From the NCBI GenBank assembly GCA_028686425.1, contig JAQUBZ010000001.1, positions 50,536 through 114,535 of the forward strand: a DNA stretch of 64,000 bases, read 5' to 3'. Within the stretch, counting starts at the first letter, position 1. Each line of letters opens with the position of its first letter. Under the pieces are notes generated by a model. It had not been told where the DNA came from and made no database searches. It saw only the letters and a program-made list of their open reading frames with translations. Shown piece after piece: positions 2,983 to 20,076 of this stretch. The DNA is from Bacteroidales bacterium (GTDB lineage Bacteria; Bacteroidota; Bacteroidia; Bacteroidales; UBA932). The position numbers and the translations under genes are program-made.

Positions 2983-4320
2983 TTATTCGTATTTATTAAC
3001 GTCATCCATAATTATCATTCTGTTGCCTTGAGCAAGTTGAGTTGCCCACACGAAATATCCGTTTGCACTCAAATGCACTCCATCCGTCGTGTATTCTGCT
3101 TTAAGATCGCCTTTATCGTCTTTCATCTTTTCGGCAATATCAAGATAAATATAATTGTATTTGCCGGTATTGGCTGCAAGCAGTTTGTTCAATTCCTCAA
3201 CTTTAGGATTAAATCCTTCATAGTATTTCGATTTTGGATTAAGAGGTAAAGTACTCTGAATATAAAGATATGCCTTCGGCACATCGCTCCTGATCTTCTT
3301 TATCAACTTTTCGTATGATGCCCAAAGCTCTGAAACCTTGATATCCTTGTTATTGATGATGTCATTGGTTCCTATCATAAGATATATCTTGTTGGGCTTC
3401 TCCTCTGCAATATCGTCTATTCTGTTATAAACGCCCTCAATGACGTCTCCGCTGATACCACGATTGATAACAGACGTAAACGGCAGAAGCTCTACCCATA
3501 AAGCATTGTTATTCAAGCTATTACCTAACATGATGATAAAATTATATGTATTAGGCAGAGAGTTGAATATTGATACTCTGTGTTTGTAGTAATCGGTTAT
3601 TTCTTTATATTTTCTGTCATTGGCCTTATTTAGTGCAGGAGTACCGATGTATTCTTCAATAGCCTTTGCATAAACTTCATAGCCGGCGCCATTGAGGTTT
3701 ACACCATTCCATGTGTATTTGTCGGACAATGTCCCTTTGTCTCCCACTACAACTGCAGGAATATCTATGTATTTGAATTTGCCGTTTTGAGCAGCTTCAG
3801 AGAGCTTGGTGTTGATTTCACCGACTTTTGCAATCTGTCCGGCATCCATTTTTCCGGTAGGAATGGTACCGAGATAGTATAATGCGGTCTTAGGGGCCAG
3901 AGTTTTGGCTCTGTCCATGATTTCGAGAACTCTGCTAACTGTGCTGTCGGCGGCATCTCCGTGAAGAACATCCCTCATACCTGCACTTACAAATATAATT
4001 TTAGGGTGTTTGACTGCAATGGAGTCAACTCTGTATCTTACATGTTCCGTACCGTCAAGGGCAATACCTCTGTTTCTGATCTTTTTGTTGTTGAAAAACA
4101 GCTGCCATTCACCTCTGTCCATATAATCATCACCAAGCATGACGATACAGTTGGTATCGATAGGCATTTCGACATACATGCCGTTTTTCTCATTAAAATA
4201 GTCTTCATTGGTAAACCAGGTCGGTGCAGGGACAGGAGCCAATGCTGATACAACTTCTTTGTCTTTACATGAAGTAAGCAGCACTGCCGCAAACATTAAA
4301 ATCGAAAAAATTCTTTTCAT
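2983..4320 (-). CDS. tandem SGNH/GDSL-family hydrolase lipoprotein
   Basis: 445 aa with a lipoprotein-like signal (LLTSC). Two GDSL-like blocks ([12 protein letters not shown] and [11 protein letters not shown]), each followed by GxND and DGVHL-type motifs. Confidence 0.75.
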
Positions 4321-4348
4321 ATCCTTTAATTTTTAAATATTATCTGAG

Positions 4349-5452
4349 TTATACATTGAACAAAAAGTGCATTACATCTCCATCCTGCACCACATATTCC
4401 TTCCCTTCACTGTTAAGTCTGCCCGCTGCACGGCATGCCGCCTCACTGCCGAGGGTGATATAATCTTCATATCTTATAACCTCTGCGCGTATAAATCCTT
4501 TTTCAAAATCGGTATGAATCACACCGGCAGCCTGCGGAGCCTTATCTCCCTTGTTGATAGTCCAAGCTCTCACTTCCGGCTCTCCTGCGGTAAAATAGGT
4601 TTGAAGATTAAGCAGTGAATATGCGGCCTGAATCAGCCTTACCACACCCGAATCTTTAAGTCCTATCTCTTCAAGAAACATCTTTCTCTCATCATAATCC
4701 TCAAGTTCTGCAATTTCGGACTCAATCTTTGCTGCAATAATCAAAATCTGAGCATCTTCTCCCTTAACCGCCTCTCTGACACTGTCCGTGTATGCGTTGC
4801 CGCTTCCGGCAGATGCTTCGTCCACATTGCACACATACATCACAGGCTTATTGGTCAAAAGGCATAGTTCTTTGGCAATCTTCAGATCTTCGGGATTATC
4901 AAAAGCGACTTCACGGGCATTTCTGCCCTGTTCAAGAACTGCTTTATATTTCAGAAGTACATCTACTGCACGTTTGGCGTGCTTGTCTCCGCCGGTCTGA
5001 GCCTGCTTCCGGACTTTGGACAATCTGTTGTTGACGGTATCCAGATCCTTAATCTGAAGCTCAATATCTATTATTTCCTTATCTCTTACAGGGTTGACAC
5101 TTCCATCGACATGTACCACATTCGGGTCGTCGAAACAGCGTAACACATGCAAAATCGCATCAGTTTCACGTATATTTGCAAGAAACTGATTACCAAGCCC
5201 TTCTCCCTTGCTTGCCCCTTTTACCAGGCCGGCGATGTCAACTATTTCGACCGTGGCGGGAACCACACGTTTGGGATTGACCAACTTTTCCAAGACACTG
5301 AGCCGCTCGTCCGGAACGCTTGTAGAACCCACATTGGGTTCAATTGTGCAGAACGGAAAGTTGGCAGCTTGTGCCTTAGAAGAACTTATACAATTGAATA
5401 GTGTCGATTTGCCTACATTCGGGAGACCAACTATACCACACCTTAATGCCAT
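4349..5452 (-). CDS. ychF: redox-regulated ATPase YchF
   Basis: 367 aa. N-terminal GIVGLPNVGKSTLFN, a TGS-like C-terminal domain, and an ending ...GDVMHFLFNV typical of YchF. Confidence 0.95.
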   Translation of the reverse strand: MALRCGIVGLPNVGKSTLFNCISSSKAQAANFPFCTIEPNVGSTSVPDERLSVLEKLVNPKRVVPATVEIVDIAGLVKGASKGEGLGNQFLANIRETDAILHVLRCFDDPNVVHVDGSVNPVRDKEIIDIELQIKDLDTVNNRLSKVRKQAQTGGDKHAKRAVDVLLKYKAVLEQGRNAREVAFDNPEDLKIAKELCLLTNKPVMYVCNVDEASAGSGNAYTDSVREAVKGEDAQILIIAAKIESEIAELEDYDERKMFLEEIGLKDSGVVRLIQAAYSLLNLQTYFTAGEPEVRAWTINKGDKAPQAAGVIHTDFEKGFIRAEVIRYEDYITLGSEAACRAAGRLNSEGKEYVVQDGDVMHFLFNV

Positions 5453-5477
5453 TACTATTGCGTTTACTATTAGCCGA

Positions 5478-5485
5478 CAAAGATA
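5478..5485 (-). promoter_or_regulatory. Bacteroidetes-type -7 box (TATCTTTG) upstream of ychF
   Basis: Matches the TAnnTTTG consensus on the minus strand, about 26 nt upstream of the ATG. Confidence 0.4.
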
Positions 5486-5503
5486 GTAATTTTCTTACAA
5501 TAG

Positions 5504-6778
5504 TTATTCATTTATAGCATCAACAGGATTAAGGTTGGCTGCAACACGGGCTGGAACCACTCCGGATATGACACCTATGACGGTGGCAATCAACAATCCC
5601 ATAATGACATTTCCGATGGTAAGTCTTATTTCAAGCGACCCTGCCGGGATAAACAATGTTCCGATATAGACTAACAGGATTCCCACTATGCCACCGGCTA
5701 TGGCAAGTGTTGCCGACTCTATCAGAAATTGCATTGTGATAACATATTTCTTGGCTCCGAGCGCCTTTTGGATTCCGATTTGCTTCGTTCGTTCCTTGAC
5801 CGATACAAACATGATATTGGCTATGCCGAATCCGCCGATCAACAATGAAAATCCACCGATAATCCACCCTATCATATTGACAAGTCTGAAGATTTTACCC
5901 ACTTCCTTTATGGCAAAAGACATCTGATTGATTGAAAAATTGTCCTTTTGTACGGGCTTCAGTCTTCTGTCTTTTCTCATGAGAGACTTTAACTCTCCGA
6001 TAAAGTCGTCAGTATTTACTCCCTCTTTGGGATTGATTATGATTTCTGCAGAAATCTGATTGATATTGATCAATGTTCTTGCGACTACAAGAGGTATTAC
6101 AATGGCGGCATCCGTATCGACCATACTGACGGTCGTACCTCTTGCACTTTTAAACACACCTATTACAATCGCATCTGTCGCTCCGACTTTGATGGTCTTT
6201 CCTATCGGATTATTTCCTCCCGAAAACAGCTTTTCGGCAACTTCATTACCAATAATGGCCACATGCGTTCCCTTTTGAAGTTCGGAGGCTGTAAACGATC
6301 TCCCCTTTTCTATCTCATCCATAACCATCATTTCCCAATCGGTTGTGGCTCCAATCACCCTTCCCGACTCAAAAGAGTTACCCTCAAATTTGACGGTTCT
6401 TGTAAACTGACAGCTGAATGTTATTCTGTCGTAGGTTGAACAATTGTTCTTAAGATACAGATAGTCCGAATACGAAATACGCGGTCTTTTCCTGTATTCC
6501 CACCATTTGAACACCCCGCCATCACCCTCTTCAGGCCCCATGGGATATTGATCCACAAATACAAGCTCACTTCCAAACGAGTCAAACCCCTCTCTGATAC
6601 TATTTTGGAGCGAATCCACCACTGTAAACACAGCTACTATGGAAAATATGCCGATGCAGACTCCGAGCAACGATAAAAACGTTCTGAATTTATCAATTTT
6701 CAATTGAGAAAGAGCAAAGTCAATACTTTCACTCACAAGCTTTAAAATGCTTATAGCATTCTTTTTTAAATTATTCAT
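5504..6778 (-). CDS. ABC transporter permease (MacB/FtsX family)
   Basis: 424 aa. N-terminal TM helix, a large periplasmic MacB_PCD-like region, and C-terminal FtsX TM helices (KERTKQIGIQKALGAKK). Confidence 0.85.
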   Translation of the reverse strand: MNNLKKNAISILKLVSESIDFALSQLKIDKFRTFLSLLGVCIGIFSIVAVFTVVDSLQNSIREGFDSFGSELVFVDQYPMGPEEGDGGVFKWWEYRKRPRISYSDYLYLKNNCSTYDRITFSCQFTRTVKFEGNSFESGRVIGATTDWEMMVMDEIEKGRSFTASELQKGTHVAIIGNEVAEKLFSGGNNPIGKTIKVGATDAIVIGVFKSARGTTVSMVDTDAAIVIPLVVARTLININQISAEIIINPKEGVNTDDFIGELKSLMRKDRRLKPVQKDNFSINQMSFAIKEVGKIFRLVNMIGWIIGGFSLLIGGFGIANIMFVSVKERTKQIGIQKALGAKKYVITMQFLIESATLAIAGGIVGILLVYIGTLFIPAGSLEIRLTIGNVIMGLLIATVIGVISGVVPARVAANLNPVDAINE

Positions 6779-9525: not shown

Positions 9526-10671
9526 ATGATAAGAAAATCTTCTCTTCTACTCTCCTTTTTCCTAATGCTTTCCGTTACGGCCTGCACAAGCGACCCGACT
9601 GCAAAGTTTGAAAAAGAAATGGATACCTTCCTGAAAGATATTCAAAATGTCGGCATGGGTGTTGCCGTTGTCAAAGACAATCAGGTTATATACAACCACT
9701 CCTTCGGAGTCAAAAACCTTGATACCCAAGAGGCTGTAACAAATGAAACACTATTCAGAATAGCCTCCATCTCCAAATCATTTTCAGCCACATCAATGAT
9801 GCAGCTTCGCGAACAGGGGCTTGTATCGCTCGATACGGACGTCAGCGAACTTATGGGATTTCCTATCAGAAACCCGAAATATCCCGAAACAGTCATCACT
9901 CTTGCCATGCTGATGTCCCACACTTCAAGCCTTAACGACAATGAAGGATATTTTACCCTTGATGTCATCAATCCTGCCACCAATCCCAACTGGGCCAACT
10001 GCTACAACGATTACGAACCCGGCAAAGGTTACGAATATTGCAATCTCAACTTCAACATGACGGGAACTTTCATCGAAAAGCTTTCAGGTGAAAGATTTGA
10101 CCAATACGTCAAACACCACGTACTCGACCCTCTCGGTCTATACGGCGGTTATTGTGTAGATTCGCTTGACACTTCACGTTTCGCCACACTTTACGAATAC
10201 AACAACAAGGCAGACTCTCTTGAAGCTTGTCCCGAAGCATACGCACCGAGATCCGAACAGATCAGGAACTACACCATGGGATACTCCACTCCTGTATTTT
10301 CTCCGACAGGAGGGATGAAGATTTCAGCTCTCGACCTCGCAAAATACATGATGATGCACATGAATTACGGAACTTCCCCTGATGGTGTCAGGATTATTTC
10401 AGAAGAGAGCTCAAAGATAATGCAGACCCCTCTTTCAGATCCGGAACACTACGGAATGGCTTTGTGGGTAACCGATGAATATACTCCGGGAATCAAACTT
10501 GTCGGACATACGGGAGGTGCTTACGGCCTAAGAAGCGCAATGTTTTTCAATCCTGCGGAAAAATACGGATTTGTTGTCATCAGCAACGGTTCAAAAGATG
10601 TTGCAAGTGACGGCAAGACCGATATTCTGACAGGTCCAATCCAATTAATGTATAAATACTTTGTCAAATAA
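9526..10671 (+). CDS. serine hydrolase (beta-lactamase/PBP4* family) lipoprotein
   Basis: 381 aa with a lipoprotein signal (SVTAC), the SxxK motif SISKSF, and a YxN-like motif. Fits the class C beta-lactamase-related fold. Confidence 0.8.
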   Translation: MIRKSSLLLSFFLMLSVTACTSDPTAKFEKEMDTFLKDIQNVGMGVAVVKDNQVIYNHSFGVKNLDTQEAVTNETLFRIASISKSFSATSMMQLREQGLVSLDTDVSELMGFPIRNPKYPETVITLAMLMSHTSSLNDNEGYFTLDVINPATNPNWANCYNDYEPGKGYEYCNLNFNMTGTFIEKLSGERFDQYVKHHVLDPLGLYGGYCVDSLDTSRFATLYEYNNKADSLEACPEAYAPRSEQIRNYTMGYSTPVFSPTGGMKISALDLAKYMMMHMNYGTSPDGVRIISEESSKIMQTPLSDPEHYGMALWVTDEYTPGIKLVGHTGGAYGLRSAMFFNPAEKYGFVVISNGSKDVASDGKTDILTGPIQLMYKYFVK

Positions 10672-11968
10672 CAGAAACATAAAGCAAGTGCGTCCCAAGA
10701 AACGCCACTACGATAACCAGCCTGATGAAGGTTTCCAACGTGATGGCTTCGATGATTACAATCGCGACGGCAACCGTGGCAGCAATTGCAACGGTGATAA
10801 TGACCATTTCTGTTTTGGCGGTGACCGCAATGAAAATCGTGATGATGATTACTCTGTAAACGGCTGCGGTCGAAGTGAAGGTTACATTGGTAATTTTTCA
10901 AAGGTGCGTCCCAAGAAGAACTTGGGACAGCACTTTTTGACAGATCAGGCGATTGCCGGCAAGATTGTCGATTCCTTACAGTCAGACGGCAACGTCCTTG
11001 AAATAGGCCCCGGCATGGGAGTACTCACACAGTACCTCCTCCAAAAAGACAACATTTTACTGAAGGTCATTGAAATAGATACCGAATCCGTCCAATACCT
11101 TCTGGAACATTTTCCGAAGCTCGCTCCAAACCTTTATGAAGCAGACTTCCTTAAAATGGATTTATCCAAACTATTTTCAGGACACCATGCAAAACAATCT
11201 GACAATAACGACAGCAATACCAACCGCCCCGCCACCACCGATGACGACAACAGTATCTCAACTTTTGCTTCCGCTAATCATACCGTAGCTACAAACAATG
11301 ACATCGTTTCGGCCATAGATGACGCCAACGCCGACAATGCCACGACTGCAGATTATGATGACAGTATAATGCAATCAGCAGGGCAGCCGGATACAACCAA
11401 ACCATTTTCAGACAATACCCTTGACTCACTCAACGCTGACAGTTACATCAACGCCGGCATTTCTGAAACAGCACTGTCCGGAAATACATCCAAACAATTT
11501 TCAGTAATAGGAAACTTTCCATACAACATCTCCTCCCAGATTTTCTTCAAGATTCTCGACTACATTGACAGCGTGCCGGAAATTGTCTGCATGCTGCAAA
11601 AAGAAGTTGCAGAACGCCTTGCAGCCCCTCCGGGAAGCAAAACTTACGGCATCCTTTCCGTGTTGCTCCAGACGTGGTATGACATCGAATATCTCTTTAC
11701 AGTCGGAGAAGGCTCTTTCCTTCCACCACCAAAAGTCAAATCAGCCGTGATAAGACTCAAACGCAACAACCGTACTCAACTTGGCTGTGACAGTGACCTG
11801 TTCAAACGCATCATCAAGACCACTTTTAATCAGCGCCGCAAGACCATACGCAATTCCATCAAACCCCTTCAGCTTGAACTACCTCCCGACACACCATTCC
11901 TCGACAAACGCCCCGAACAACTATCCGTAGAAGACTTCATCCTCCTGAGTCAGACACTCCAAGCATAA
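10661..11968 (+). CDS. rsmA: 16S rRNA (adenine1518/1519-N6)-dimethyltransferase RsmA/KsgA carrying two in-frame insertions
   Basis: KsgA motifs VRPKKNLGQHFL, EIGPGMGVLT, IGNFPYNISSQIFFK and PPKVKSAV. No ATG start is available. Candidate starts are TTG 10661, GTG 10688 and GTG 10904. At 435 aa it is about 170 aa longer than typical KsgA. Confidence 0.85.
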   Translation: MSNNRNIKQVRPKKRHYDNQPDEGFQRDGFDDYNRDGNRGSNCNGDNDHFCFGGDRNENRDDDYSVNGCGRSEGYIGNFSKVRPKKNLGQHFLTDQAIAGKIVDSLQSDGNVLEIGPGMGVLTQYLLQKDNILLKVIEIDTESVQYLLEHFPKLAPNLYEADFLKMDLSKLFSGHHAKQSDNNDSNTNRPATTDDDNSISTFASANHTVATNNDIVSAIDDANADNATTADYDDSIMQSAGQPDTTKPFSDNTLDSLNADSYINAGISETALSGNTSKQFSVIGNFPYNISSQIFFKILDYIDSVPEIVCMLQKEVAERLAAPPGSKTYGILSVLLQTWYDIEYLFTVGEGSFLPPPKVKSAVIRLKRNNRTQLGCDSDLFKRIIKTTFNQRRKTIRNSIKPLQLELPPDTPFLDKRPEQLSVEDFILLSQTLQA

Positions 11969-11970
11969 CA

Positions 11971-12006
11971 TATTACCAATCCCACGACTATTACCAATCC
12001 CACGAC
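11971..12006 (+). repeat. 18-bp tandem direct repeat x2 (TATTACCAATCCCACGAC)
   Basis: Two adjacent exact copies lie immediately after the rsmA stop. Confidence 0.9.
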
Positions 12007-12037
12007 ATCACAACATCACAAACGGCGTATCTTACGA

Positions 12038-12096
12038 CATACTGCGATGTATTTTACGGCATACTGCGATGTATCTTCACGCATACTGCGATGTAT
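12038..12096 (+). repeat. 22-bp-period tandem repeat x3 (core CATACTGCGATGTAT)
   Basis: The core starts at 12038, 12060 and 12082. Confidence 0.9.
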
Positions 12097-12226
12097 CTCC
12101 CGTCCAGAATATACATCCGAGCAGCAACACAAACCAATCCATCACGGAACATCACCGGAGCCGCCATCCCCGAAACCATTACAAGGACTTCCGTCACGGA
12201 ACATCACCGGAGCCTTTCACCCCGAC

Positions 12227-12264
12227 CACCCTGTGGCAATCAGACCCTTGAAAGCCACGGGGTG
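12227..12264 (-). repeat. REP-like hairpin repeat, inverted orientation relative to the other copies
   Basis: CACCCTGTGGC-N16-GCCACGGGGTG, an 11-bp stem with one G-T pair. It is followed by the reverse complement of the conserved spacer. Confidence 0.85.
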
Positions 12265-12331
12265 GAAAGTGGCAAAAATACAATCGCGGCCAGACATACG
12301 CCAGAGGCATCATCGCTGAAGCAAGCGATTT

Positions 12332-12369
12332 CACCCTGTGGTGATCATAGCCTCGAAAGCCACGGGATG
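12332..12369 (-). repeat. REP-like hairpin repeat, degenerate copy
   Basis: CACCCTGTGGT-N16-GCCACGGGATG, about 105 nt after the previous copy. Confidence 0.7.
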
Positions 12370-12649
12370 GCAATACGTCATCGCGGAGACGCTTCTCCCC
12401 GTAAAGCCAATCCCTCCCAGACACACATCAAAGCCATCAACAGACACTATTATTACAATCACTCTCGGACCATTTGGATACAGCCCCAACAGCAACCTAC
12501 AGCTGCAATCACTGAAATACATTGCAAATGGACCCGGATTTCTACGCCGAAGTTTTGTGCAATAAGTTTCTGATTCTTGTTGTCACATAGGGCTTTTGTG
12601 GGTTTGTGCACCTTGTGATTATTCGTTGCATACACTGACAACTGCTTAT

Positions 12650-14314
12650 TTACCAATATTTTACCTGAAGAATTATTGGCAAGTGGTCACTGACACCACC
12701 GTTATACCGAGGACCGATATGAGTACGAAAAGGCTTGAACCCGAGATATGTCTTATCTTTTTCAGTAATGTATTCATTTTTGTAAATATCCATGTTGCAA
12801 TACGGCCTCATATTTTCAGAGACTAAAAATTGATCGATCAGCTCCCAGATGCCTCTGTACCTGATGGAACCTTCTCCATTTTCAGCTATTTCGACCGCAA
12901 GATTATTAAGGGGGACATTTTGCAGGGCTTCTCCGTCCGGGGTATCATTAAAGTCCCCCATCACGATTATCCCTTGACGAGAAGCAGGTATTGTCTGATA
13001 ATCAGCCACTTTGCCAAAAATATGATTGTCAGAACAAATGATCCGATCTGCCTTAGCAATAGAATCGATTTTCATTTTCAGAGTATTTGATGCAGACATC
13101 CTTTTGCCTGATGAAGCTTCTGTCCCGCTTATTTTTGAAGGCCAATGATTTACGAAGATGTGCAGTGTGTCCCCCGATTGCATGAAGTGTGTAGCTCCTG
13201 TTTCAGGATGGCTTTGCGATTTGTGAGAATGACTTTGCGACTGGTGAGGATTATTTTCAGAGATGGATAATGTGTCCGAAGTGGAATATTTTTCAGAGGT
13301 GGAAGGCGAGCCCGTAGAAGTGAGTTGGTCAGAGGCTGAAGGCGAGCCCGTAGAAGTGAGTTTGCCGGAGACTGGAAGTGTGCCCGTAGAAGTGAGTTGG
13401 TCAGAGGCTGAAGGCGAGCCCGTAGAAGTGAGTTTGCCGGAGACTGGAAGTGTGCCCGTAGAAGTGAGTTTGCCGGAGACTGATAGTGTGCCGTCTGGAG
13501 ACAGAAGTATTCCTTTCACGTATAGAATATCACGAGTAGTTGTCTCCGGGATTGTCACAGGTATGGCCTCTACTGTCAGCACTCTGAATCGGTCTTTTCT
13601 ATATAGCATGGCCACATCTATGCCTCGTTTGTCCGGGCTGTCGCGGTGCACAATCGAATAATTGAGCCTGTACAAAGGCGTTTCCTTCAATAGTTGATTG
13701 AGAACAAATCTGTTTTCGACCTCGGCAAATCCGATAATTATCGGGAAATCACCATATTGCTGTGATATTGAAATAATTGTCTTGGCAATGCTGTTACGTT
13801 TACGAATAAACTTTTTCCAACTCCAATGATATTTGCCGCCATAAGAGAAGTCCTCATCATCAGTGAGTTCGTCATTGAAAGGATCAAAATAATTCTCAAG
13901 ATTCCAAAACATCATCGTAGCCTTTGTGCCGGATTTCTCCTCATGGCTTTCCTCTTTGCTGCTTTCCACCCCGTGGCTTTCAAGGGTCTGATTGCCACAG
14001 GGTGAAATCGATGAAGTCGTTAGCTTCAGCGATGATGCCTCCGGCGTGTGTCTGTGCGGGATTGGATTTTTGCAGGTGTCCACCCCGTGGCTTTCGAGGG
14101 TCTGATTGCCACAGGGTGAAGTCGCTGGCTTCAGCGATGATGTCTCCGGCGTGTGTCTGCGCGGGATTGGATTTTTGCTGCTGTCCACCCCGTGGCTTTC
14201 GAGGGTCTGATTGCCACAGGGTGAAGTCGCTGGAGACGATGGAGACATGTATATCTGAATATTTGTCGAAAGCAGCCATACAAATGCTACAAAGATTATA
14301 TATAGATTTTTCAT
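12650..14314 (-). CDS. endonuclease/exonuclease/phosphatase (EEP) family protein with repeat-derived insertions
   Basis: EEP motifs (MFWNLENYFDPF, FAEVEN, IFVNHWPSK, MGDFND, GGVSDHLPI). The signal-peptide-like start MKNLYIIFVAFVWLL is at 14314. An alternative start, MMFWNL, is at 13915. Confidence 0.75.
   Translation of the reverse strand: MKNLYIIFVAFVWLLSTNIQIYMSPSSPATSPCGNQTLESHGVDSSKNPIPRRHTPETSSLKPATSPCGNQTLESHGVDTCKNPIPHRHTPEASSLKLTTSSISPCGNQTLESHGVESSKEESHEEKSGTKATMMFWNLENYFDPFNDELTDDEDFSYGGKYHWSWKKFIRKRNSIAKTIISISQQYGDFPIIIGFAEVENRFVLNQLLKETPLYRLNYSIVHRDSPDKRGIDVAMLYRKDRFRVLTVEAIPVTIPETTTRDILYVKGILLSPDGTLSVSGKLTSTGTLPVSGKLTSTGSPSASDQLTSTGTLPVSGKLTSTGSPSASDQLTSTGSPSTSEKYSTSDTLSISENNPHQSQSHSHKSQSHPETGATHFMQSGDTLHIFVNHWPSKISGTEASSGKRMSASNTLKMKIDSIAKADRIICSDNHIFGKVADYQTIPASRQGIIVMGDFNDTPDGEALQNVPLNNLAVEIAENGEGSIRYRGIWELIDQFLVSENMRPYCNMDIYKNEYITEKDKTYLGFKPFRTHIGPRYNGGVSDHLPIILQVKYW
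13293..13490 (+). repeat. 36-bp tandem repeat array (two alternating unit types, about 5.5 units) inside the EEP gene
   Basis: Units start at 13311, 13347, 13383, 13419 and 13455. Each begins CCCGTAGAAGTGAGTT. They are in frame (12 aa each). Confidence 0.9.
13966..14224 (+). repeat. three tandem REP-like units (hairpins at 13966-14005, 14080-14119, 14185-14224)
   Basis: Each unit is CCACCCCGTGGCTTTC(A/G)AGGGTCTGATTGCCACAGGGTGA plus the conserved spacer ..CCTCCGGCGTGTGTCTG(T/C)GCGGGATTGGATTTTTGC... Unit lengths are 114 and 105 nt. Confidence 0.9.
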
Positions 14315-14324
14315 AGTCGTGGAT

Positions 14325-15272
14325 TTACATTGCAAGACAACGTTTGATTTGTCGATCTTTAATATGAAACATACTTTTCAGTTCTTTGGCAGCAGATTGC
14401 TTCTCTTCAAGAGTCAATTGCGTATAAGCTTTTTTGCGAAACCGAGGAACTATCTTATTATCAATGTATTCGCAAATAACCATATCGTCATGTTCTATTG
14501 GTTTGAAATGACCGCGTTCATTGGAAAGCAATTCCGAAATATTATAACGACGTTTATTTTCAATGGTTTCTAAAGTTATAGGAGGCAATATCTCATGAAA
14601 AGGAAGAGTATCTTTTTCCTGTTCTCGAGACCACTCTTCATCCGACACCCTATTTAAATGATATAGAAAACGCCTCGCAGTTGTGAAATAATTTTCAGCT
14701 ATTACTATTTCAACGAAAGACTCTGGAAGAATAATACCCTGCGGAGTCAATTTATAATGCGAAGGAATCTTTCCATTTTGAGGCAAATAGTTTCTTGGAA
14801 TACGCCTGCAAGTCTCTGGTAATAAGTCTTGTTGTTTAATGCCTAAGATATCTTTAACATGTAAATCTTTTGTAAAATAACAATTGATTGATGAAAAAGG
14901 ATATGCAAATGAAGTGGTACATACACCATGATGAATGGGATTTCTTAAAATATAACTTGCAACGGCTGTGGCATGGTGCACTCCAACAATAGTGTTACAA
15001 AAAATCTTTTTTTCACCAAGTCTTCCTTTCCTAAAATATCTACTATTGAAGTGTTTGGTAACACTAAGTCTGAAAACTTTCATAAAAGCAGATGGATTAT
15101 CGCTAAGTAACATCAGATGAATATGATCAGACATTAATGCGTAACAAATCAATTTAGAATTAGTGGCATAAAGTGATAATGCCAGACTATTCCGGGCAAA
15201 AAGATAATCATTTGAATCCCTGAAAAGGACTTCATTATGAGATGAATAGCAAATGTGAAATAATTCTGTCAT
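14325..15272 (-). CDS. IS200/IS605-like Y1 (HUH) transposase, RAYT-type, with a C-terminal extension
   Basis: 315 aa with an ATG start. HUH motif in SDHIHLML (H50-I-H52) and a catalytic-Tyr motif SYILRNPIHHG (Y107), at the spacing expected of Y1 transposases. Flanked by palindromic repeats. Confidence 0.7.
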   Translation of the reverse strand: MTELFHICYSSHNEVLFRDSNDYLFARNSLALSLYATNSKLICYALMSDHIHLMLLSDNPSAFMKVFRLSVTKHFNSRYFRKGRLGEKKIFCNTIVGVHHATAVASYILRNPIHHGVCTTSFAYPFSSINCYFTKDLHVKDILGIKQQDLLPETCRRIPRNYLPQNGKIPSHYKLTPQGIILPESFVEIVIAENYFTTARRFLYHLNRVSDEEWSREQEKDTLPFHEILPPITLETIENKRRYNISELLSNERGHFKPIEHDDMVICEYIDNKIVPRFRKKAYTQLTLEEKQSAAKELKSMFHIKDRQIKRCLAM

Positions 15273-15398
15273 GAATCTACCTCCTCAATCTTTCTAAAAA
15301 TTAAACAAAGAATTTGTATAGAAACAAAGTTATAAAAGAAGTTACATTAACTGCAAATAAAAGTGAAGATCTGGAAGAAATTTCTTTTTTAAGGTACT

Positions 15399-15540
15399 CA
15401 CATCGTGGCTTTCTACCCCTTGATTGCCACGAAGTGGATTGGTTGGCTTCGGAGAGGATGCCTCCGGCGTGTGTCTGTGCGGGATTGTATTTTTGCCCCC
15501 TCCACATCGTGGCTTTCTACCCCCTGATTGCCACGAAGTG
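15399..15540 (+). repeat. two REP-like units, sequence variant (hairpins at 15399-15438 and 15502-15540)
   Basis: CACATCGTGGC-TTTCTACCCC(T/C)TGATT-GCCACGAAGTG, with the same spacer (CCTCCGGCGTGTGTCTGTGCGGGATTGTATTTTTGC) between the two units. Confidence 0.85.
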
Positions 15541-15549
15541 AATTAAAAA

Positions 15550-15623
15550 GCTATCGTAACAGGAGCGACGAAGCCATCATCAGAATATCATTATCACGGC
15601 TATCGTAACAGGAGCGACGAAGC
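15550..15623 (+). repeat. perfect 25-bp direct repeat (GCTATCGTAACAGGAGCGACGAAGC) spaced 49 bp apart, spanning the SNF transporter stop codon
   Basis: Copies at 15550-15574 (just beyond the stop) and 15599-15623 (within the last codons of the gene). Confidence 0.95.
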
Positions 15624-16938
15624 GTATTATAAAGAAGACCGTTTCAAGCAGCCATTGCGGAATCTTGAGCGTTCCGTGGTTGGTCAATTCGTCAAAGGCA
15701 GCCGTTTTGCCAAGTCTCCATCCTACAAAAATCACTATCAGCAATCCCCCTATCGGCATCAGGACATTGGAGGAAACATAGTCAAACAAATCAAAAATAT
15801 TCATTCCGAATAGTTTGACACCGCTCATTGCCCCTTGAGACAACGAACAGAAACATCCGAGCAAAAGAATTATTCCAAAAGCAATGGCCACAGCCCCGCC
15901 TCTTTTCATCTTAAACTCTTCAATCAGGTAAGAGACAAACACTTCAAGCAGTGAAATGGATGATGTCAGAGCGGCAAGCAGCAATGTTACAAAAAACAGT
16001 ATTGCGATTACACCTCCAAGCGGTAGAGAGGCAAAGATTCTCGGTAAAGTTATAAATACAAGGCCAGGACCTTCTCCCGGACTGATTCCAAAAGCAAATA
16101 CCGCCGGCATAATTGCACATCCTGCAATGATTGCAAAAAGAGTGTCCGCAATAGACGTATAGGCCGAACACTTCATTATATTTTCATCCTTGCTCACATA
16201 CGAGCCATAAGTCATTATCGTGCCACATCCCAATGAAAGCGAAAAAAATGCCTGTCCGAGCGCAGCGAGAAAAGTTCCGGATGTAACTTTCGAAAAATCA
16301 GGCTTGAACATATACGATACCCCTGCTCCGGCGCCCTCAAGTGTCAGAGAGCGTATAGCAATTATAATCACCATTACAAACAACATCGGCATCATCATTT
16401 TGGTATATTTTTCTATACCTTTCTTGATTCCTGCCAGCACCACAAATGCAGTAAGAGCCATAAAAGCAAGGTGATACAACAAAGGTTTGACGGGTGACGA
16501 GACAAAATCGCTGAACATTGTCGCATGATTGGCTTCACTTCCCGCCCTCGTAAAATCGAACAAAACCGCTTTTACCAGATATTCTATCGACCATCCTCCC
16601 ACAACACTGTAAAACGACAATATGCAGATGGATGCCAGCACTCCGAAAATTCCGATTATCCCCCATTTTGAGCCGGGAGCGAGAACGCGAAATGCCCCGA
16701 ACACATTGGACTGGCTCCTCCTTCCGAGGATAAATTCTGAAAACATAATCGGAAGGCACAGCACGAAAACAAATACAAGGTAAATAATGATAAATGCCGC
16801 CCCTCCGTTTTCCCCCATCAAATATGGGAACCTCCATAAATTGCCAAGCCCTATCGCCGAACCGGCCATGGCCACAAGTACTCCGAACCTGCTGCCGAAA
16901 TTGTCGCGTGAAGAGACTTCTATGTTGTTAGTTTTCAT
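15580..16938 (-). CDS. sodium-dependent transporter (neurotransmitter:sodium symporter/SNF family)
   Basis: 452 aa, multi-TM, with the NSS signature GLGNLWRFPYL near the N-terminus. The ATG start overlaps the folA 3' end by 11 nt. Confidence 0.9.
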   Translation of the reverse strand: MKTNNIEVSSRDNFGSRFGVLVAMAGSAIGLGNLWRFPYLMGENGGAAFIIIYLVFVFVLCLPIMFSEFILGRRSQSNVFGAFRVLAPGSKWGIIGIFGVLASICILSFYSVVGGWSIEYLVKAVLFDFTRAGSEANHATMFSDFVSSPVKPLLYHLAFMALTAFVVLAGIKKGIEKYTKMMMPMLFVMVIIIAIRSLTLEGAGAGVSYMFKPDFSKVTSGTFLAALGQAFFSLSLGCGTIMTYGSYVSKDENIMKCSAYTSIADTLFAIIAGCAIMPAVFAFGISPGEGPGLVFITLPRIFASLPLGGVIAILFFVTLLLAALTSSISLLEVFVSYLIEEFKMKRGGAVAIAFGIILLLGCFCSLSQGAMSGVKLFGMNIFDLFDYVSSNVLMPIGGLLIVIFVGWRLGKTAAFDELTNHGTLKIPQWLLETVFFIIRFVAPVTIAVIMIF

Positions 16939-17761
16939 TGGTTAAGTATTGTATGAACTGAAAATCGAAATTGGTCTTTGTGTCGTGAAACACTTCACTT
17001 TCCCAGATTATCCTCCATTTTGAGGAGTCTATCTTTGGAAAATATGTATCTGCGTCATCTATTATAGTCTTGACGGAGGTTATGTAGAGACGATACGCTC
17101 CGGGCATGGTCTGCCGGTAAATTTCACCGCCGCCGATGACAAAGATTTCGTCACGGGAAGCCATTTTCAGGGCCTCTTCAATAGAAGGAGCAACCATTGT
17201 GACCGTAGCAGCTGCTCCGGCAGCAGCGCCGACAGCAGCCCCACCCCCAACACTTCCCCCGACACAAACAGCAACATCCCCGGCAGCAGCGCCGACAGCA
17301 TCCACGGACCCCCGGACAACACTCCCGGCAACAACCCCGACAGCAGCCCCACCCCCGACACTTCCACCGACACAAACAGCAACATCCCCGGCAGCAGCGC
17401 CAACAGCAGCCACGGACCCCCGGACAACACTCCCGGCAACATCCTCGACAGCAGCCCCGACAGCAGCCCCGCCCCCGACACTTCCCCCGACACTTCCACT
17501 GGCCACGACATCACTCCCAACTGCAGCAAAGGCAGCCTTCTCCACGGTCAGGCTGCGGCTGACAATAATATTTTCACGAAGTGGTAAAGGCTTGCAACCC
17601 AACGACTCCCATGTGTGCCGCCCCATAATGACAGTTCCATTTTTAGTAAGCTTCTTAAAATATTTCAGGTCCGCAGAAATATGCCAAGGCATCCGGTTCC
17701 CACGACCGATCGCCATATTTTCAGAAGTGGCAACTATCAATGAATATCTCTTGCTTGTCAT
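16928..17761 (-). CDS. folA: dihydrofolate reductase with a ~115-aa Gly/Ala/Val-rich repeat insertion
   Basis: DHFR motifs ([47 protein letters not shown]). The ATG at 17759-17761 overlaps the thyA stop (ATGA), suggesting translational coupling. Confidence 0.85.
17233..17500 (+). repeat. 108-bp GC-rich tandem repeat (about 2.5 units) inside folA
   Basis: CAGCAGCCCC(A/G)CCCCC... recurs at 17233, 17341 and 17449. The period is 108 bp (36 codons). It is C-rich on the + strand and has no stops in several frames. Confidence 0.9.
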
Positions 17762-18552
17762 ACGGCAATGGGGGCCTTTATTCCCGGCCACGGGTTATAA
17801 TTTGTTAGCGTAAAATCCTCATATTCAAATGAATATATGTCTTTTTTATCCAGATTGATCGTCATTTGCGGAAGAGACCTCACTTCTCTCGAAAGTTGTG
17901 TTTCCACCTGCTGAAAATGGTTCAGATAGATGTGTGCATCTCCCAGAGTATGAACGAAATCGCCCAACTCATATCCACACACCTGTGCAATCATTTGTGT
18001 AAGAAGAGCATACGAGGCAATATTGAACGGCACTCCTAAAAATACATCGGCACTTCTCTGATAGAGCTGGCAGGAGAGGCGTCCGTCCGCAACATAAAAC
18101 TGAAACAGGCAGTGGCACGGAGGAAGGGCCATGGAATCGATTTCTGCCACATTCCAAGCGGAAATGATGTGTCTGCGCGAATCGGGATTGCGTTTGAGTT
18201 GATCAATAAGATTGGTCAGCTGATCTATTGTACCTCCGTCCGGCGCAGGCCAGCTTCTCCATTGATGTCCATAGACCGGACCAAGCTCTCCTCCGGCATC
18301 AGCCCACTCGTCCCAGATGGTCACTCCGTGATCATTGAGATATTTAATATTGGTACTCCCGGAAATAAACCACAGCAATTCGTAAATAATTGACTTCAAA
18401 TGGACTTTCTTGGTGGTCAGAAGCGGAAACCCTTCGTTGAGATTAAAACGCATCTGATAGCCGAAAATGCTCTTTGTTCCGACTCCCGTGCGGTCACTCT
18501 TGACCACACCATTATCCATTATATGTTGAAGAAGATCTAAATATTGTTTCAT
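17758..18552 (-). CDS. thyA: thymidylate synthase
   Basis: 264 aa. [15 protein letters not shown], the active site ALPPCH, and a canonical ThyA length. Confidence 0.97.
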
Positions 18553-18569
18553 GATAAAAGTTTGGTAGG

Positions 18570-18577
18570 CAAATATA
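18570..18577 (-). promoter_or_regulatory. -7 box (TATATTTG) upstream of thyA-folA
   Basis: TAnnTTTG match on the minus strand, 18 nt upstream of the thyA ATG. Confidence 0.4.
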
Positions 18578-18679
18578 CACTTTTTTCATTAACGAGGCAC
18601 CCTGCAGGACAACTTTTGGATAAATACACCCGGTATGAAGATGCTTTATCATGATGCAGCGTGAGTTTCGGGGAGGATA

Positions 18680-18760
18680 CCTCCGGCGTGTGTCTGCGCG
18701 GGATTGTATTTTTGCTGCTGTCCACCCCGTGGCTTTCGGAGGCTTGATTGCCACGGGGTG
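18680..18760 (+). repeat. single REP-like unit (spacer plus a perfect 11-bp-stem hairpin)
   Basis: CCTCCGGCGTGTGTCTGCGCGGGATTGTATTTTTGCTGCTG followed by CACCCCGTGGC-N16-GCCACGGGGTG, between thyA and the ATPase gene. Confidence 0.85.
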
Positions 18761-18886
18761 TAATCGATGGCTTCTGCGATGATGGCCACGGCGTGGAATC
18801 GTGGGCTTCGGACCGCAAATTGTCATGAAATGCAATTGACGGCAATATTATTTTTGCCAAACTGTTGCAAGAGTTTATAATATTCG

Positions 18887-18894
18887 TATATTTG
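18887..18894 (+). promoter_or_regulatory. -7 box (TATATTTG) upstream of the AAA+/DUF4143 gene
   Basis: TAnnTTTG match 22 nt upstream of the ATG at 18916. Confidence 0.4.
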
Positions 18895-18915
18895 CAAGTA
18901 AGACTTTGGATTATC

Positions 18916-20076
18916 ATGATAAATAAAAGTATTATGGAGTACGAAAGAATTATGAAACTTGCTGACGCTCAGAGCGAAAGCCTATTTTTATGGGGTGCTC
19001 GTCAAGTCGGCAAGAGTACATTGGTCAAAAAACTCTTTCCTGAAGCAAAGATTTATGACCTTCTGATGAGTGATGAATATGGTCGGCTAATACGACGTCC
19101 ACAACTCTTACGTGAGGAACTTGAGCATCTTGATGAAAACACATTGGTCATTATTGATGAAATTCAAAAAATCCCTCAACTTTTGGATGAAGTTCATTGG
19201 CTGATGGTCAATCGGGGCATCCGATTTATTCTTTGTGGTTCAAGTGCAAGAAAATTAAAACGTATAGGAACAAATCTTTTAGGTGGGCGAGCTTTGCCAC
19301 AAACATTATTTCCTTTGGTAAGTGCTGAGATTCCGGATTTTGATTTGATACGGGGTATCAACAACGGAATGATCCCGCGGCATTACACTATCGATAACCC
19401 CAAGAAACGATTGCAGGCATACATCGGAGTCTATCTTAAAGAGGAGATTCAAGAAGAGGCGCACGTGCGGCAATTAGCCTCTTTTAATAGATTTATGGAT
19501 ATTGCAGCGCAATCTGATGGAGAGATTGTCAACTACTCCGATATCGCACAAGATTGCGGTGTAAGTGCAAGTACTGTAAAGGAGTATTTCAATATTCTGA
19601 ATGAGACTCTTATCGGCTATATGATACCTGCATTTACACTTTCGAAGAAACGGAGAGCAATTCTGGCTCCGAAATTTTACTATTTTGATGTCGGAATTGT
19701 GAATCACCTGCTTAACAGAACAAATCTGATGCCCGGATCTGCAGATTTCGGACATGCATTCGAGCATTTTATGATACAGGAGATTATAGCATATTTAGGA
19801 TATAGCGAGTCAGATGAGAAACTATCATATTGGCGCACTGCCGGAGGTTACGAGGTTGACGCCATTATTGGCAACGGACGCATAGCTATTGAATTCAAAA
19901 GTTCAGAGGAAATTCAATCCAAACATACAAAAGGTTTGAAAGCTTTTTGTGAAGATTTTCCGGATGCAAGAGCAATAATCGTTTCTCTCGACCGAAATCG
20001 CAGAACACTTAATGGTATCGACATATTTCCAGCTATGGAATTTCTGAAAATGTTGTGGGAAGGCACAATCATTTAG
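18916..20076 (+). CDS. AAA+ ATPase (AAA_14/DUF4143 type) with a C-terminal PD-(D/E)XK-like motif
   Basis: Walker A GARQVGKST, Walker B VIIDEIQ, and a C-terminal YEVDAII...IAIEFKS restriction-endonuclease-like motif. I use the first ATG (18916); the ORF-track start is TTG. Confidence 0.8.
   Translation: MINKSIMEYERIMKLADAQSESLFLWGARQVGKSTLVKKLFPEAKIYDLLMSDEYGRLIRRPQLLREELEHLDENTLVIIDEIQKIPQLLDEVHWLMVNRGIRFILCGSSARKLKRIGTNLLGGRALPQTLFPLVSAEIPDFDLIRGINNGMIPRHYTIDNPKKRLQAYIGVYLKEEIQEEAHVRQLASFNRFMDIAAQSDGEIVNYSDIAQDCGVSASTVKEYFNILNETLIGYMIPAFTLSKKRRAILAPKFYYFDVGIVNHLLNRTNLMPGSADFGHAFEHFMIQEIIAYLGYSESDEKLSYWRTAGGYEVDAIIGNGRIAIEFKSSEEIQSKHTKGLKAFCEDFPDARAIIVSLDRNRRTLNGIDIFPAMEFLKMLWEGTII

Follow-up and report, generated by a model that had tools for sequence, protein, structure and literature searches.

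The locus

The DNA considered here, called the window in what follows, is a stretch of 64,000 nucleotides (nt) from the genome of a Bacteroidales bacterium (contig JAQUBZ010000001.1, positions 50,536 to 114,535). Its minus strand carries the gene for a 315-amino-acid (aa) protein that resembles the REP-associated tyrosine transposases (RAYTs, or TnpAREP), where REP stands for repetitive extragenic palindrome. This transposase gene, of which the window contains a single copy, is bracketed by arrays of a structured repeat with a period of about 105 nt (Table 1). An earlier inspection of the letters alone, here termed the sequence-only reading, had likened the arrangement to a REPtron and had remarked on the missing tnpB partner. 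Indeed, no tnpB lies next to the gene, the neighbours being a gene for an SNF-family transporter and a gene for an Exo_endo_phos_3 nuclease.

Table 1. Coordinates of the transposase gene, its parts, the neighbouring nuclease gene and the repeat arrays in the window
Feature	Position	Strand	Remarks
RAYT-like Y1 HUH transposase gene	14325..15272	-	Open reading frame (ORF), 315 aa; motifs, profile matches, predicted fold
Catalytic core, transposase gene	14838-15272	-	Residues ~1-145
HUH codons, transposase gene	15117-15125	-	
Tyr107 codon, transposase gene	14952-14954	-	
Family-specific C-terminal domain, transposase gene	14328-14795	-	Residues ~160-315
Exo_endo_phos_3 nuclease gene	12650..14314	-	Called ORF 554 aa, contains array B
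Array A, REP-like	12135..12459	-	Opposite orientation; gap between convergent rsmA and nuclease genes
Array B, REP-like, downstream of transposase gene	13967..14258	+	In frame inside called nuclease ORF
Array C, REP-like, upstream of transposase gene	15399..15545	+	Unit orientation as in array B
Array D, REP-like	18640..18815	+	Gap between thyA and AAA_14 ATPase gene

A Y1 HUH protein with an additional domain

The ORF with its HUH and Tyr motifs is present as the sequence-only reading had described it, and both motifs are invariant in an alignment of 21 family members. The HUH motif reads SDHIHLML (H50 and H52), and the Tyr motif, 55 residues past it, reads SYILRNPIHHG (Y107). In the same alignment, R110, H114 and H115 are invariant together with H50, H52 and Y107, and N111 is nearly so (at least 90%), being followed by Pro or Ala. 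Among the TnpAY1 proteins, the signature Y---NP marks class 2 (TnpAREP-like), whereas IS200 transposases have Y---Q (PMC6006769). With YILRNP, the window protein displays the class-2 form.

A search against Y1_Tnp and RAYT profiles, which the sequence-only reading had put forward as a check, gave significant matches in both cases, though under the curated cut-offs: NCBIfam REP_Tyr_transpos (NF047646) matches residues 12-127 with E=4.7e-8 and 33 bits (cut-off 80 bits), and Pfam Y1_Tnp (PF01797) matches with E=8.6e-4 and 19.9 bits (gathering score 23 bits). At E<0.01, the first profile recognizes 14 of the 21 family members (best E=2e-12) and the second recognizes 11. The PHROGs and PADLOC libraries gave no match.

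A model of the full protein, built with AlphaFold2 on the family alignment, is confident, with a predicted local distance difference test score (pLDDT) of 88.2 and a predicted template modelling score (pTM) of 0.88. Its top match in the Protein Data Bank (PDB), as ranked by Foldseek, is chain 4er8_A, that is, Escherichia coli TnpAREP with a REP hairpin (TM-score 0.66 on the target, 141 columns). About 30 chains of IS200, IS608 and ISDra2 transposases come after it. The predicted fold supports the assignment of the protein as a Y1 HUH enzyme, TnpAREP being the closest among solved structures.

Relatives of the protein form a sizeable family. A word-indexed search returned 32 full-length relatives with 34-42% identity, all of 285-322 aa, and an exhaustive profile search returned 237 representatives of clusters at 50% identity (E<=1e-30), most of them 300-325 aa long and matched end to end. 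The few members that bear an organism name all come from uncultured Bacteroidales. Most members are annotated as "hypothetical protein", others as "transposase", and one JGI/IMG entry is named RayT. At one homologue locus (L132), two family paralogues of 318 and 322 aa stand in tandem, 12 nt apart (4032-4988 and 5001-5969).

The C-terminal ~170 residues are conserved across the family. Because the 237 cluster representatives mostly match end to end, this region can be regarded as a conserved part of the protein. Its invariant residues include W214, Q218, E238, D263, C267, D271, R311 and C312 in the 21-member alignment. The sequence-only reading had guessed at a terminal helix-turn-helix (HTH); this finds no support, as the C-terminal domain has no Pfam family match and, taken alone, no Foldseek match in the PDB at E<=0.001. 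When modelled alone with AlphaFold2, the domain is predicted less confidently (pLDDT 74, pTM 0.42) than within the full protein, which suggests that it packs against the catalytic core, in particular through residues ~190-260. Invariant H6 and C8 at the N-terminus could form a zinc site together with C267 and C312.

A structured repeat on both flanks of the gene

The ~105-nt structured repeat that had been reported on both flanks of the gene is real. Its hairpin core, CGTGGCTTTC-N6-YTGATTGCCAC, occurs eight times in the window and never in 100 shuffles, and Tandem Repeats Finder (TRF) gives a period of 105 nt. Each unit is composed of a 38-nt hairpin (11-bp stem, 16-nt loop) and a conserved spacer of ~67 nt, within which a second small hairpin, TCGCTG-GCTT-CAGCGA, is found. 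The inner part of the main stem (CGTGGC/GCCACG) is nearly invariant and the outer part covaries. In the loop, the ends (TTTC...TGATT) are conserved and the centre varies.

Array B comprises three hairpins (13967-14004, 14081-14118 and 14186-14223), and array C has a hairpin at 15399-15436, a 66-nt spacer and a hairpin at 15503-15540. The "three plus two copies" of the sequence-only reading are therefore correct as hairpin counts; in full units there are only two (114 and 105 nt) plus a partial third downstream of the gene and one upstream. Its 11-bp stem likewise stands as a stem of 11 positions, which in most copies form ten Watson-Crick pairs and one C.A (G.T on the other strand). The extent that it gave, 13966-15540, takes in both flanks and leaves out arrays A and D. 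Array A contains hairpins at 12227-12264 and 12332-12369 along with degenerate unit remnants, and is 87-88% complementary to array B. In array D, a hairpin with a perfect 11-bp stem (18723-18760) lies between two partial spacers. Within every array of the window the units are arranged head-to-tail.

Nineteen distinct copies were used to follow the evolution of the stem. Pairing is kept in 87.6% of cells and drops to 26-49% when the partner is slid by one to three columns. Three outer stem pairs have changed on both sides in a compensatory manner, for instance from C-G to T-A, and the number of stem cells changed on both sides (11) was reached in 4 of 500 shuffles. Since pairing is kept with compensatory changes, the hairpin structure is maintained, as expected if it is read as a folded single strand. 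Only weak hints designate the gene-sense strand as the active one: its folding z-score is -3.6 vs -2.5 for the other strand, and the asymmetry of G.T vs C.A in the stem favours it in eight cells and the other strand in five.

On its 5' side, the hairpin is preceded by (T/G)CC, ahead of CAC..., on one strand and by (A/T)TT on the opposite strand. Terminal copies stop at different places on their 3' side (model positions 39-91), and no crisp element ends, unit boundaries or cleavage sites can be discerned. With Rfam 15, nothing in the window reached the gathering threshold and nothing within 11900-19000 matched even at E<=1. Terminator-like sites are not enriched.

A different short repeat adjoins array C. 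The 25-nt sequence GCTATCGTAACAGGAGCGACGAAGC is present in two exact copies, 49 nt apart, at 15550-15623, and this pair overlaps the SNF transporter gene (15580-16938, minus strand) at its 3' end.

Dispersal of the repeat beyond the locus

A hairpin-pattern scan of metagenome contigs returned 76 loci, in nine of which the unit profile finds real copies. One of these is a gene-bearing contig, L127. The eight others (L059, L067, L072, L079, L080, L081, L125 and L128) resemble the window through the repeat alone, and their copies appear to sit between ordinary genes, as judged from a stop-to-stop ORF listing. Seven of the eight share the "fermentation metagenome" assembly of L127, with similar 2-6x coverage, and L079 comes from a different metagenome. 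The tetranucleotide composition of six of the eight contigs, longer than 3 kb, correlates with that of the window at r=0.88-0.96. These values are the highest among all scan matches, and 5-kb pieces of the window itself fall in the same range. The correlation is 0.73 for L081 (2.3 kb); L079 and L080, both under 2 kb, were left out of this test. Composition and coverage (the latter for the seven contigs of the same assembly) suggest that the eight contigs belong to the genome of the window. When 185,579 species genomes were scanned with the same hairpin pattern, 40 single matches were obtained in unrelated phyla, at about chance level, and no relative.

The sequence-only reading had held open that the repeat might be confined to this locus. 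It is not: copies are found in four gaps of the window and on eight other contigs. Rather than being the product of a local duplication, the repeat is dispersed, and its copies are markedly concentrated near the gene.

Association of gene and repeat across the family

The 450 nt upstream and the 450 nt downstream of the gene were compared with each other at eight family loci. In seven of them the similarity between the two flanks is above every within-locus control (for example, 176 vs at most 26 bits at L009 and 88 vs at most 20 bits at L137), the exception being L132, where no clear flank-to-flank repeat similarity is seen. Each locus has its own hairpin, with stems of 10-14 bp and loops of ~12-21 nt, a long-loop type unlike that of canonical REPs. 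At L009, the hairpin CCGGA-GGTGGTGA...TCACCACC-TTCCGG belongs to a 106-nt tandem unit, with four copies upstream and two downstream, all direct. The hairpin of L137 is CACGACCACCA...TGGTGGTCGTG, with a spacing of 72 nt; those of L013 and L007 are GTCCCGGAAA...TTTCCGGGAC and TGTCCCTACCTTCC...GGATGGTAGGGACA, respectively. At L133, the hairpin ACGAGTCGCAAC...GTTGCGACTCGT is found on inverted flanks. Thus, the direct orientation of both flanks, to which the sequence-only reading had drawn attention, holds in the window and at L009 and is no rule of the family.

Bracketing of the gene by a repeat is a property of the family, the hairpin sequences differing from one locus to the other. Different hairpins accompanying different proteins correspond to the co-evolution pattern known for TnpAREP and REP (PMC6006769; PMC8266576). 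Many family contigs end next to the gene, as expected because repeats break assemblies.

These comparisons bear on the idea that repeat and protein are unrelated. The repeat would then be a miniature inverted-repeat transposable element, have a structural or regulatory role, or result from slippage and unequal recombination, and would simply have accumulated in this region, next to a gene that is a relic, either decaying or exapted. The ragged ends of the arrays would suit such an origin, as would the copy-number differences, which correspond to whole units, and the fact that four of the five tandem arrays of the window lie within ~3 kb of the gene, among them unrelated arrays of 22, 36 and 108 nt. 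However, coincidence would not be expected to place an own, different hairpin repeat on both flanks in seven of eight distant homologues. Moreover, the catalytic residues are invariant across a family of 237 clusters (E<=1e-30), the stem is maintained by compensatory changes, and neither an Rfam match at E<=1 nor a terminator-like excess is seen. An independent repeat is, in our view, unlikely.

Two other features were noted upstream of family genes. An identical hairpin, TTATCCGCATAC-TTTTTCG-GTATGCGGATAA, is found at L133 (4942-4972) and L137 (4950-4982), in both cases ~20-60 nt ahead of the family gene. This hairpin, which is missing upstream of the gene in the window, may be a regulatory element of one sub-branch. 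At L009, a 228-aa "gene" with no Pfam match (5303-5989) is called across the upstream 106-nt array, where G+C-rich repeats have probably misled the ORF caller.

An apparently fixed gene

In all six contigs shown, which come from different samples, the identical protein adjoins the same nuclease gene. The number of hairpins varies among these contigs, with three or two downstream of the gene and two or one upstream. The transposase gene is apparently not mobile.

An autonomous insertion sequence of the IS200/IS605 type, in which the gene and its flanking hairpins (as left and right ends) move as one unit, would also combine a Y1 HUH protein with hairpins on both sides of its gene. The structural matches include transposases of IS200, IS608 and ISDra2, and the many contigs that break beside the gene could be taken in the same sense. 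Yet the Tyr motif is Y---NP and not the class-1 Y---Q (PMC6006769), the same nuclease gene stays beside the identical protein in all six contigs shown, and tnpB is missing. In addition, the flanks are arrays of one unit in variable copy number, not distinct left and right ends, and 10 or more other sites carry the repeat with no transposase gene. A mobile unit of this type is thus very unlikely.

In two contigs of the same species, L004 (62-2098) and L005 (721-2590), IS66-family genes lie upstream of the transposase gene and replace the SNF transporter gene. TnpB_IS66 is found in both, DDE_Tnp_IS66 in L004 and an rve-type gene in L005. One truncated repeat unit alone is left between the IS66 genes and the transposase gene. 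It may also be mentioned that at L135 an Exo_endo_phos_3 nuclease gene (771-1826) adjoins a distant family member, P0032 (34% identity), being upstream of it there; the presence of such a neighbour both at L135 and in the window may be residual synteny or coincidence.

A probable REPtron-like locus

The fold, the class-2 Y---NP motif, the bracketing by a dispersed repeat and the recurrence of this bracketing around distant relatives all support the REPtron-like interpretation already proposed in the sequence-only reading. The locus would consist of a fixed, single-copy gene for a domesticated Y1 HUH enzyme of the RAYT/TnpAREP type amid arrays of its cognate non-autonomous element. We put the probability of this reading at about three in four.

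Several results weigh on the other side. The window protein scores under the curated cut-offs of both profiles. In sequence searches of the PDB, neither the family profile nor the N-terminal domain gave anything meaningful, the only matches being spurious ones to RadA. In all published TnpAY1 subclasses a Trp is conserved between the HUH and Tyr motifs, as WQ or WE (PMC6006769), and there is no Trp in residues 52-107 of the window protein. In this interval the family carries instead an invariant R-x-G-x-x-G (G83 and G86; RLGE in the sequence). Regarding the repeat, no GT[AG]G is found at the foot of the hairpin, GTGG being present inside the stem only; such a foot is also reported absent for subclass 2.6 and class 3 (PMC6006769). 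Furthermore, with the unit profile (nhmmer), all eight window copies fall within ~3.5 kb of the gene, at 12135-18815, and the other 57 kb contain none. The copy number thus appears modest, and local recombination or slippage could account for much of the array structure. Finally, the repeats of the homologues were not found past their immediate flanks in the 5-13 kb around the homologue loci; dispersal therefore applies to the repeat of the window only.

By analogy with IS200/IS605 TnpA and E. coli TnpAREP, on which the following scheme is modelled (PMC8266576), the hairpin, once folded in one strand of DNA that is single-stranded, for example at a replication fork, would be bound by the enzyme. 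Cleavage beside the hairpin would involve the HUH-bound metal and Tyr107, giving a 5'-phosphotyrosine link, and the cut strand would then be rejoined elsewhere. Re-insertion beside an existing copy would produce head-to-tail arrays with a constant period and a hairpin at both ends, and rarer distant events would produce dispersed copies. The fold and catalytic motifs, the reality, structure, covariation and dispersal of the repeat and its association with the gene across the family are shown by the data above, whereas it is inferred that the enzyme acts on these hairpins, which strand it would use, where it would cut and what its C-terminal domain does. Group 3 TnpAREP proteins show loop-dependent recognition (PMC8266576), which offers a parallel to the conserved loop nucleotides described above. 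The C-terminal domain probably contributes to recognition of the unusually large hairpin loop or to regulation; an analogy is offered by TnpAEc, whose C-terminal tail is regulatory (PMC8266576).

Array B within the called nuclease gene

According to the gene callers, the nuclease ORF starts 10 nt past the stop of the transposase gene. It opens with the leader MKNLYIIFVAFVWLLS, a hydrophobic N-terminus, which is followed by three repeat units of 35 codons each, and the catalytic part begins with MMFWNLENYFD at residue 134. Orthologues of the nuclease have 310-350 aa, with a hydrophobic leader of ~20 residues directly before MFWNVENYFD. Array B thus adds ~105-115 residues in frame to the predicted nuclease product. 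Strain variants of 551, 530 and 492 aa are all in frame, and the indel in the first unit is of 9 nt. The simplest reading would be an in-frame invasion of the leader/mature junction of the nuclease by array B. It should be noted that three of the six frames are open across array B; the in-frame status is therefore weak evidence. The downstream cluster flanks the transposase gene, as the sequence-only reading had it, but it lies inside the neighbouring nuclease ORF as called and is not simply intergenic.

The in-frame position of the array in all strain variants of this ORF is one of the observations that could indicate recruitment to a host function. In such a case, the hairpin-binding HUH enzyme would serve in the control of neighbouring genes, process intermediates of replication or repair, or give rise to in-frame length variation in genes, and spread of the repeat would not be primary. 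The new function would be carried by the large C-terminal domain, which has invariant residues and no known fold. Those subclasses described so far that have a large C-terminal domain are devoid of REPs, and other roles are suspected for them (PMC6006769). The local excess of tandem arrays goes in the same direction. However, mobilisation explains the dispersal of the repeat and the family-wide flanking hairpins most simply, the argument from the reading frame is weakened by the three open frames, and nothing points directly to a host function. Recruitment of this kind appears unlikely as an alternative to the REPtron-like reading.

Comparison with known systems

Among domesticated transposases that coexist with a population of non-autonomous elements of their own, those of RAYT/REP systems are the best studied. 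To our knowledge, nearly all mechanistic and evolutionary work on these systems concerns Proteobacteria. A sizeable and mostly unannotated family in Bacteroidales would broaden the comparison of hairpin recognition by Y1 enzymes; it combines a new accessory domain with large-loop hairpins that have no GTAG guide.

The closest structural reference is E. coli TnpAREP (RAYT, YafM; PDB 4ER8), which belongs to subclass 2.2 (Quentin et al., 2018; PMC6006769). Both proteins have the Y1 HUH fold with a single Tyr and the Y---NP motif, and in both systems the gene, which is apparently single and fixed in the present case, is flanked by cognate hairpin repeats that are also found elsewhere in intergenic DNA. 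In contrast, the protein described here is 315 aa long and not 165 aa, has a conserved extra domain of ~170 aa, lacks the W-Q/E motif and falls under the NCBIfam cut-off (33 vs 80 bits). The repeats differ too. E. coli REPs have a long bulged stem and a small loop, whereas the stem is here near-perfect over 11 bp with a 16-nt loop and has no GTAG foot. In E. coli, REPs form inverted pairs (REP doublets forming hairpins, REPIN, or bacterial interspersed mosaic elements, BIME), whereas the 105-nt units of the window are head-to-tail and inverted flanks are seen at the homologue locus L133 only.

RAYT-like proteins of Bacteroidetes have already been catalogued, as subclasses 2.4 and 2.6 (PMC6006769). 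Subclass 2.6, with its "atypical secondary structures", is similar in its host, in flanking structures devoid of GT[AG]G, which had to be found by inspection, and in the presence of copies elsewhere in the genome (PMC6006769). It differs in the protein, which has a median length of 179 aa and carries WQ and YIH[QN]NP (PMC6006769), as against 300-320 aa, no conserved Trp from HUH to Tyr and YILRNP here. Subclasses 2.1 (TIRYT-like) and 2.3 share with the present family a class-2 core followed by a large conserved C-terminal extension, the length being near that of subclass 2.3 (325 aa); these subclasses have no associated REP-like sequences (PMC6006769), whereas REP-like arrays flank the gene here. 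Tails of subclass 2.1 resemble HTH domains (Bac_DnaA_C, HTH_23/28; PMC6006769), unlike the present tail, which has neither a Pfam nor a fold match. A large C-terminal domain and a REPtron, found in separate subclasses only in the published classification (PMC6006769), thus coexist in this locus.

Judging by length, motifs and C-terminal domain, it is supported that the family fits no published TnpAY1 subclass. The sequence-only reading had suggested a distinct and little-studied RAYT/REP family in Bacteroidales. Distinctness is consistent with the lack of a fitting subclass and of annotation as such, but RAYT-like proteins were not new to Bacteroidetes. In the searchable literature, no paper linking TnpAREP to Bacteroidales was found.

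With IS200/IS605 TnpA proteins such as those of IS608 and ISDra2, the common points are the catalytic fold and, presumably, a single-strand "peel and paste" chemistry guided by hairpins. The Y---Q motif, the length of ~150 aa, the multi-copy unit with distinct left and right ends and the frequent tnpB of these elements are not seen here. In-frame palindromic inserts are known from the Rickettsia palindromic elements (RPEs) and from intragenic REPs, where REP clusters encode 43-82 residues (Di Nocera et al., 2013; PMC3733652). In the present case, by comparison, a tandem array of 35-codon modules lies directly beside the cognate transposase gene, with predicted in-frame translation.

A broader proposal can be made tentatively, as a possibility that we find doubtful when taken as a whole. 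The family, of at least 237 clusters at 50% identity, would be an undescribed RAYT subclass in which a Trp-less Y1 HUH core and a ~170-aa domain that reads long-loop hairpins spread ~105-nt two-hairpin modules head-to-tail, some of which would enter coding genes in frame. Such activity may create a hot spot of tandem duplication and strain-level variation in protein length. On the practical side, repeats of this kind break metagenome assemblies and inflate ORF calls, as with the nuclease called at 554 aa when its orthologues have 310-350 aa.

Other repeats and length variation around the gene

TRF detects five distinct tandem arrays in the 64-kb window, four of them no more than ~3 kb from the transposase gene (12027-17458). 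Besides the REP array, these four comprise one with a 22-nt period (12027-12098), one of 36/72/108 nt in the nuclease ORF (13293-13492) and one of 108 nt in folA. The arrays around the gene may mark a local hot spot of tandem duplication.

The array at 13293-13492 corresponds to a second in-frame insert in the nuclease ORF with respect to orthologues, namely a 12-aa (36-nt) repeat rich in Ser, Thr and Gly in the middle of the protein. The folA ORF, for dihydrofolate reductase (16928-17791, minus strand), encodes 287 aa here and 201 aa in another strain (L001); the difference is due to an in-frame, G+C-rich 108-nt tandem repeat at 17204-17505, which encodes a sequence rich in Gly, Ala and Val in the middle of the enzyme. 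On the other side, the rsmA/ksgA-type (RrnaAD) ORF (10661-11968, plus strand) has 435 aa from a TTG start and 426 aa in the gene calls of other strains. It has a low-complexity N-terminal extension rich in Asp, Asn and Gly, and an internal insert rich in Asp, Asn, Thr and Ser.

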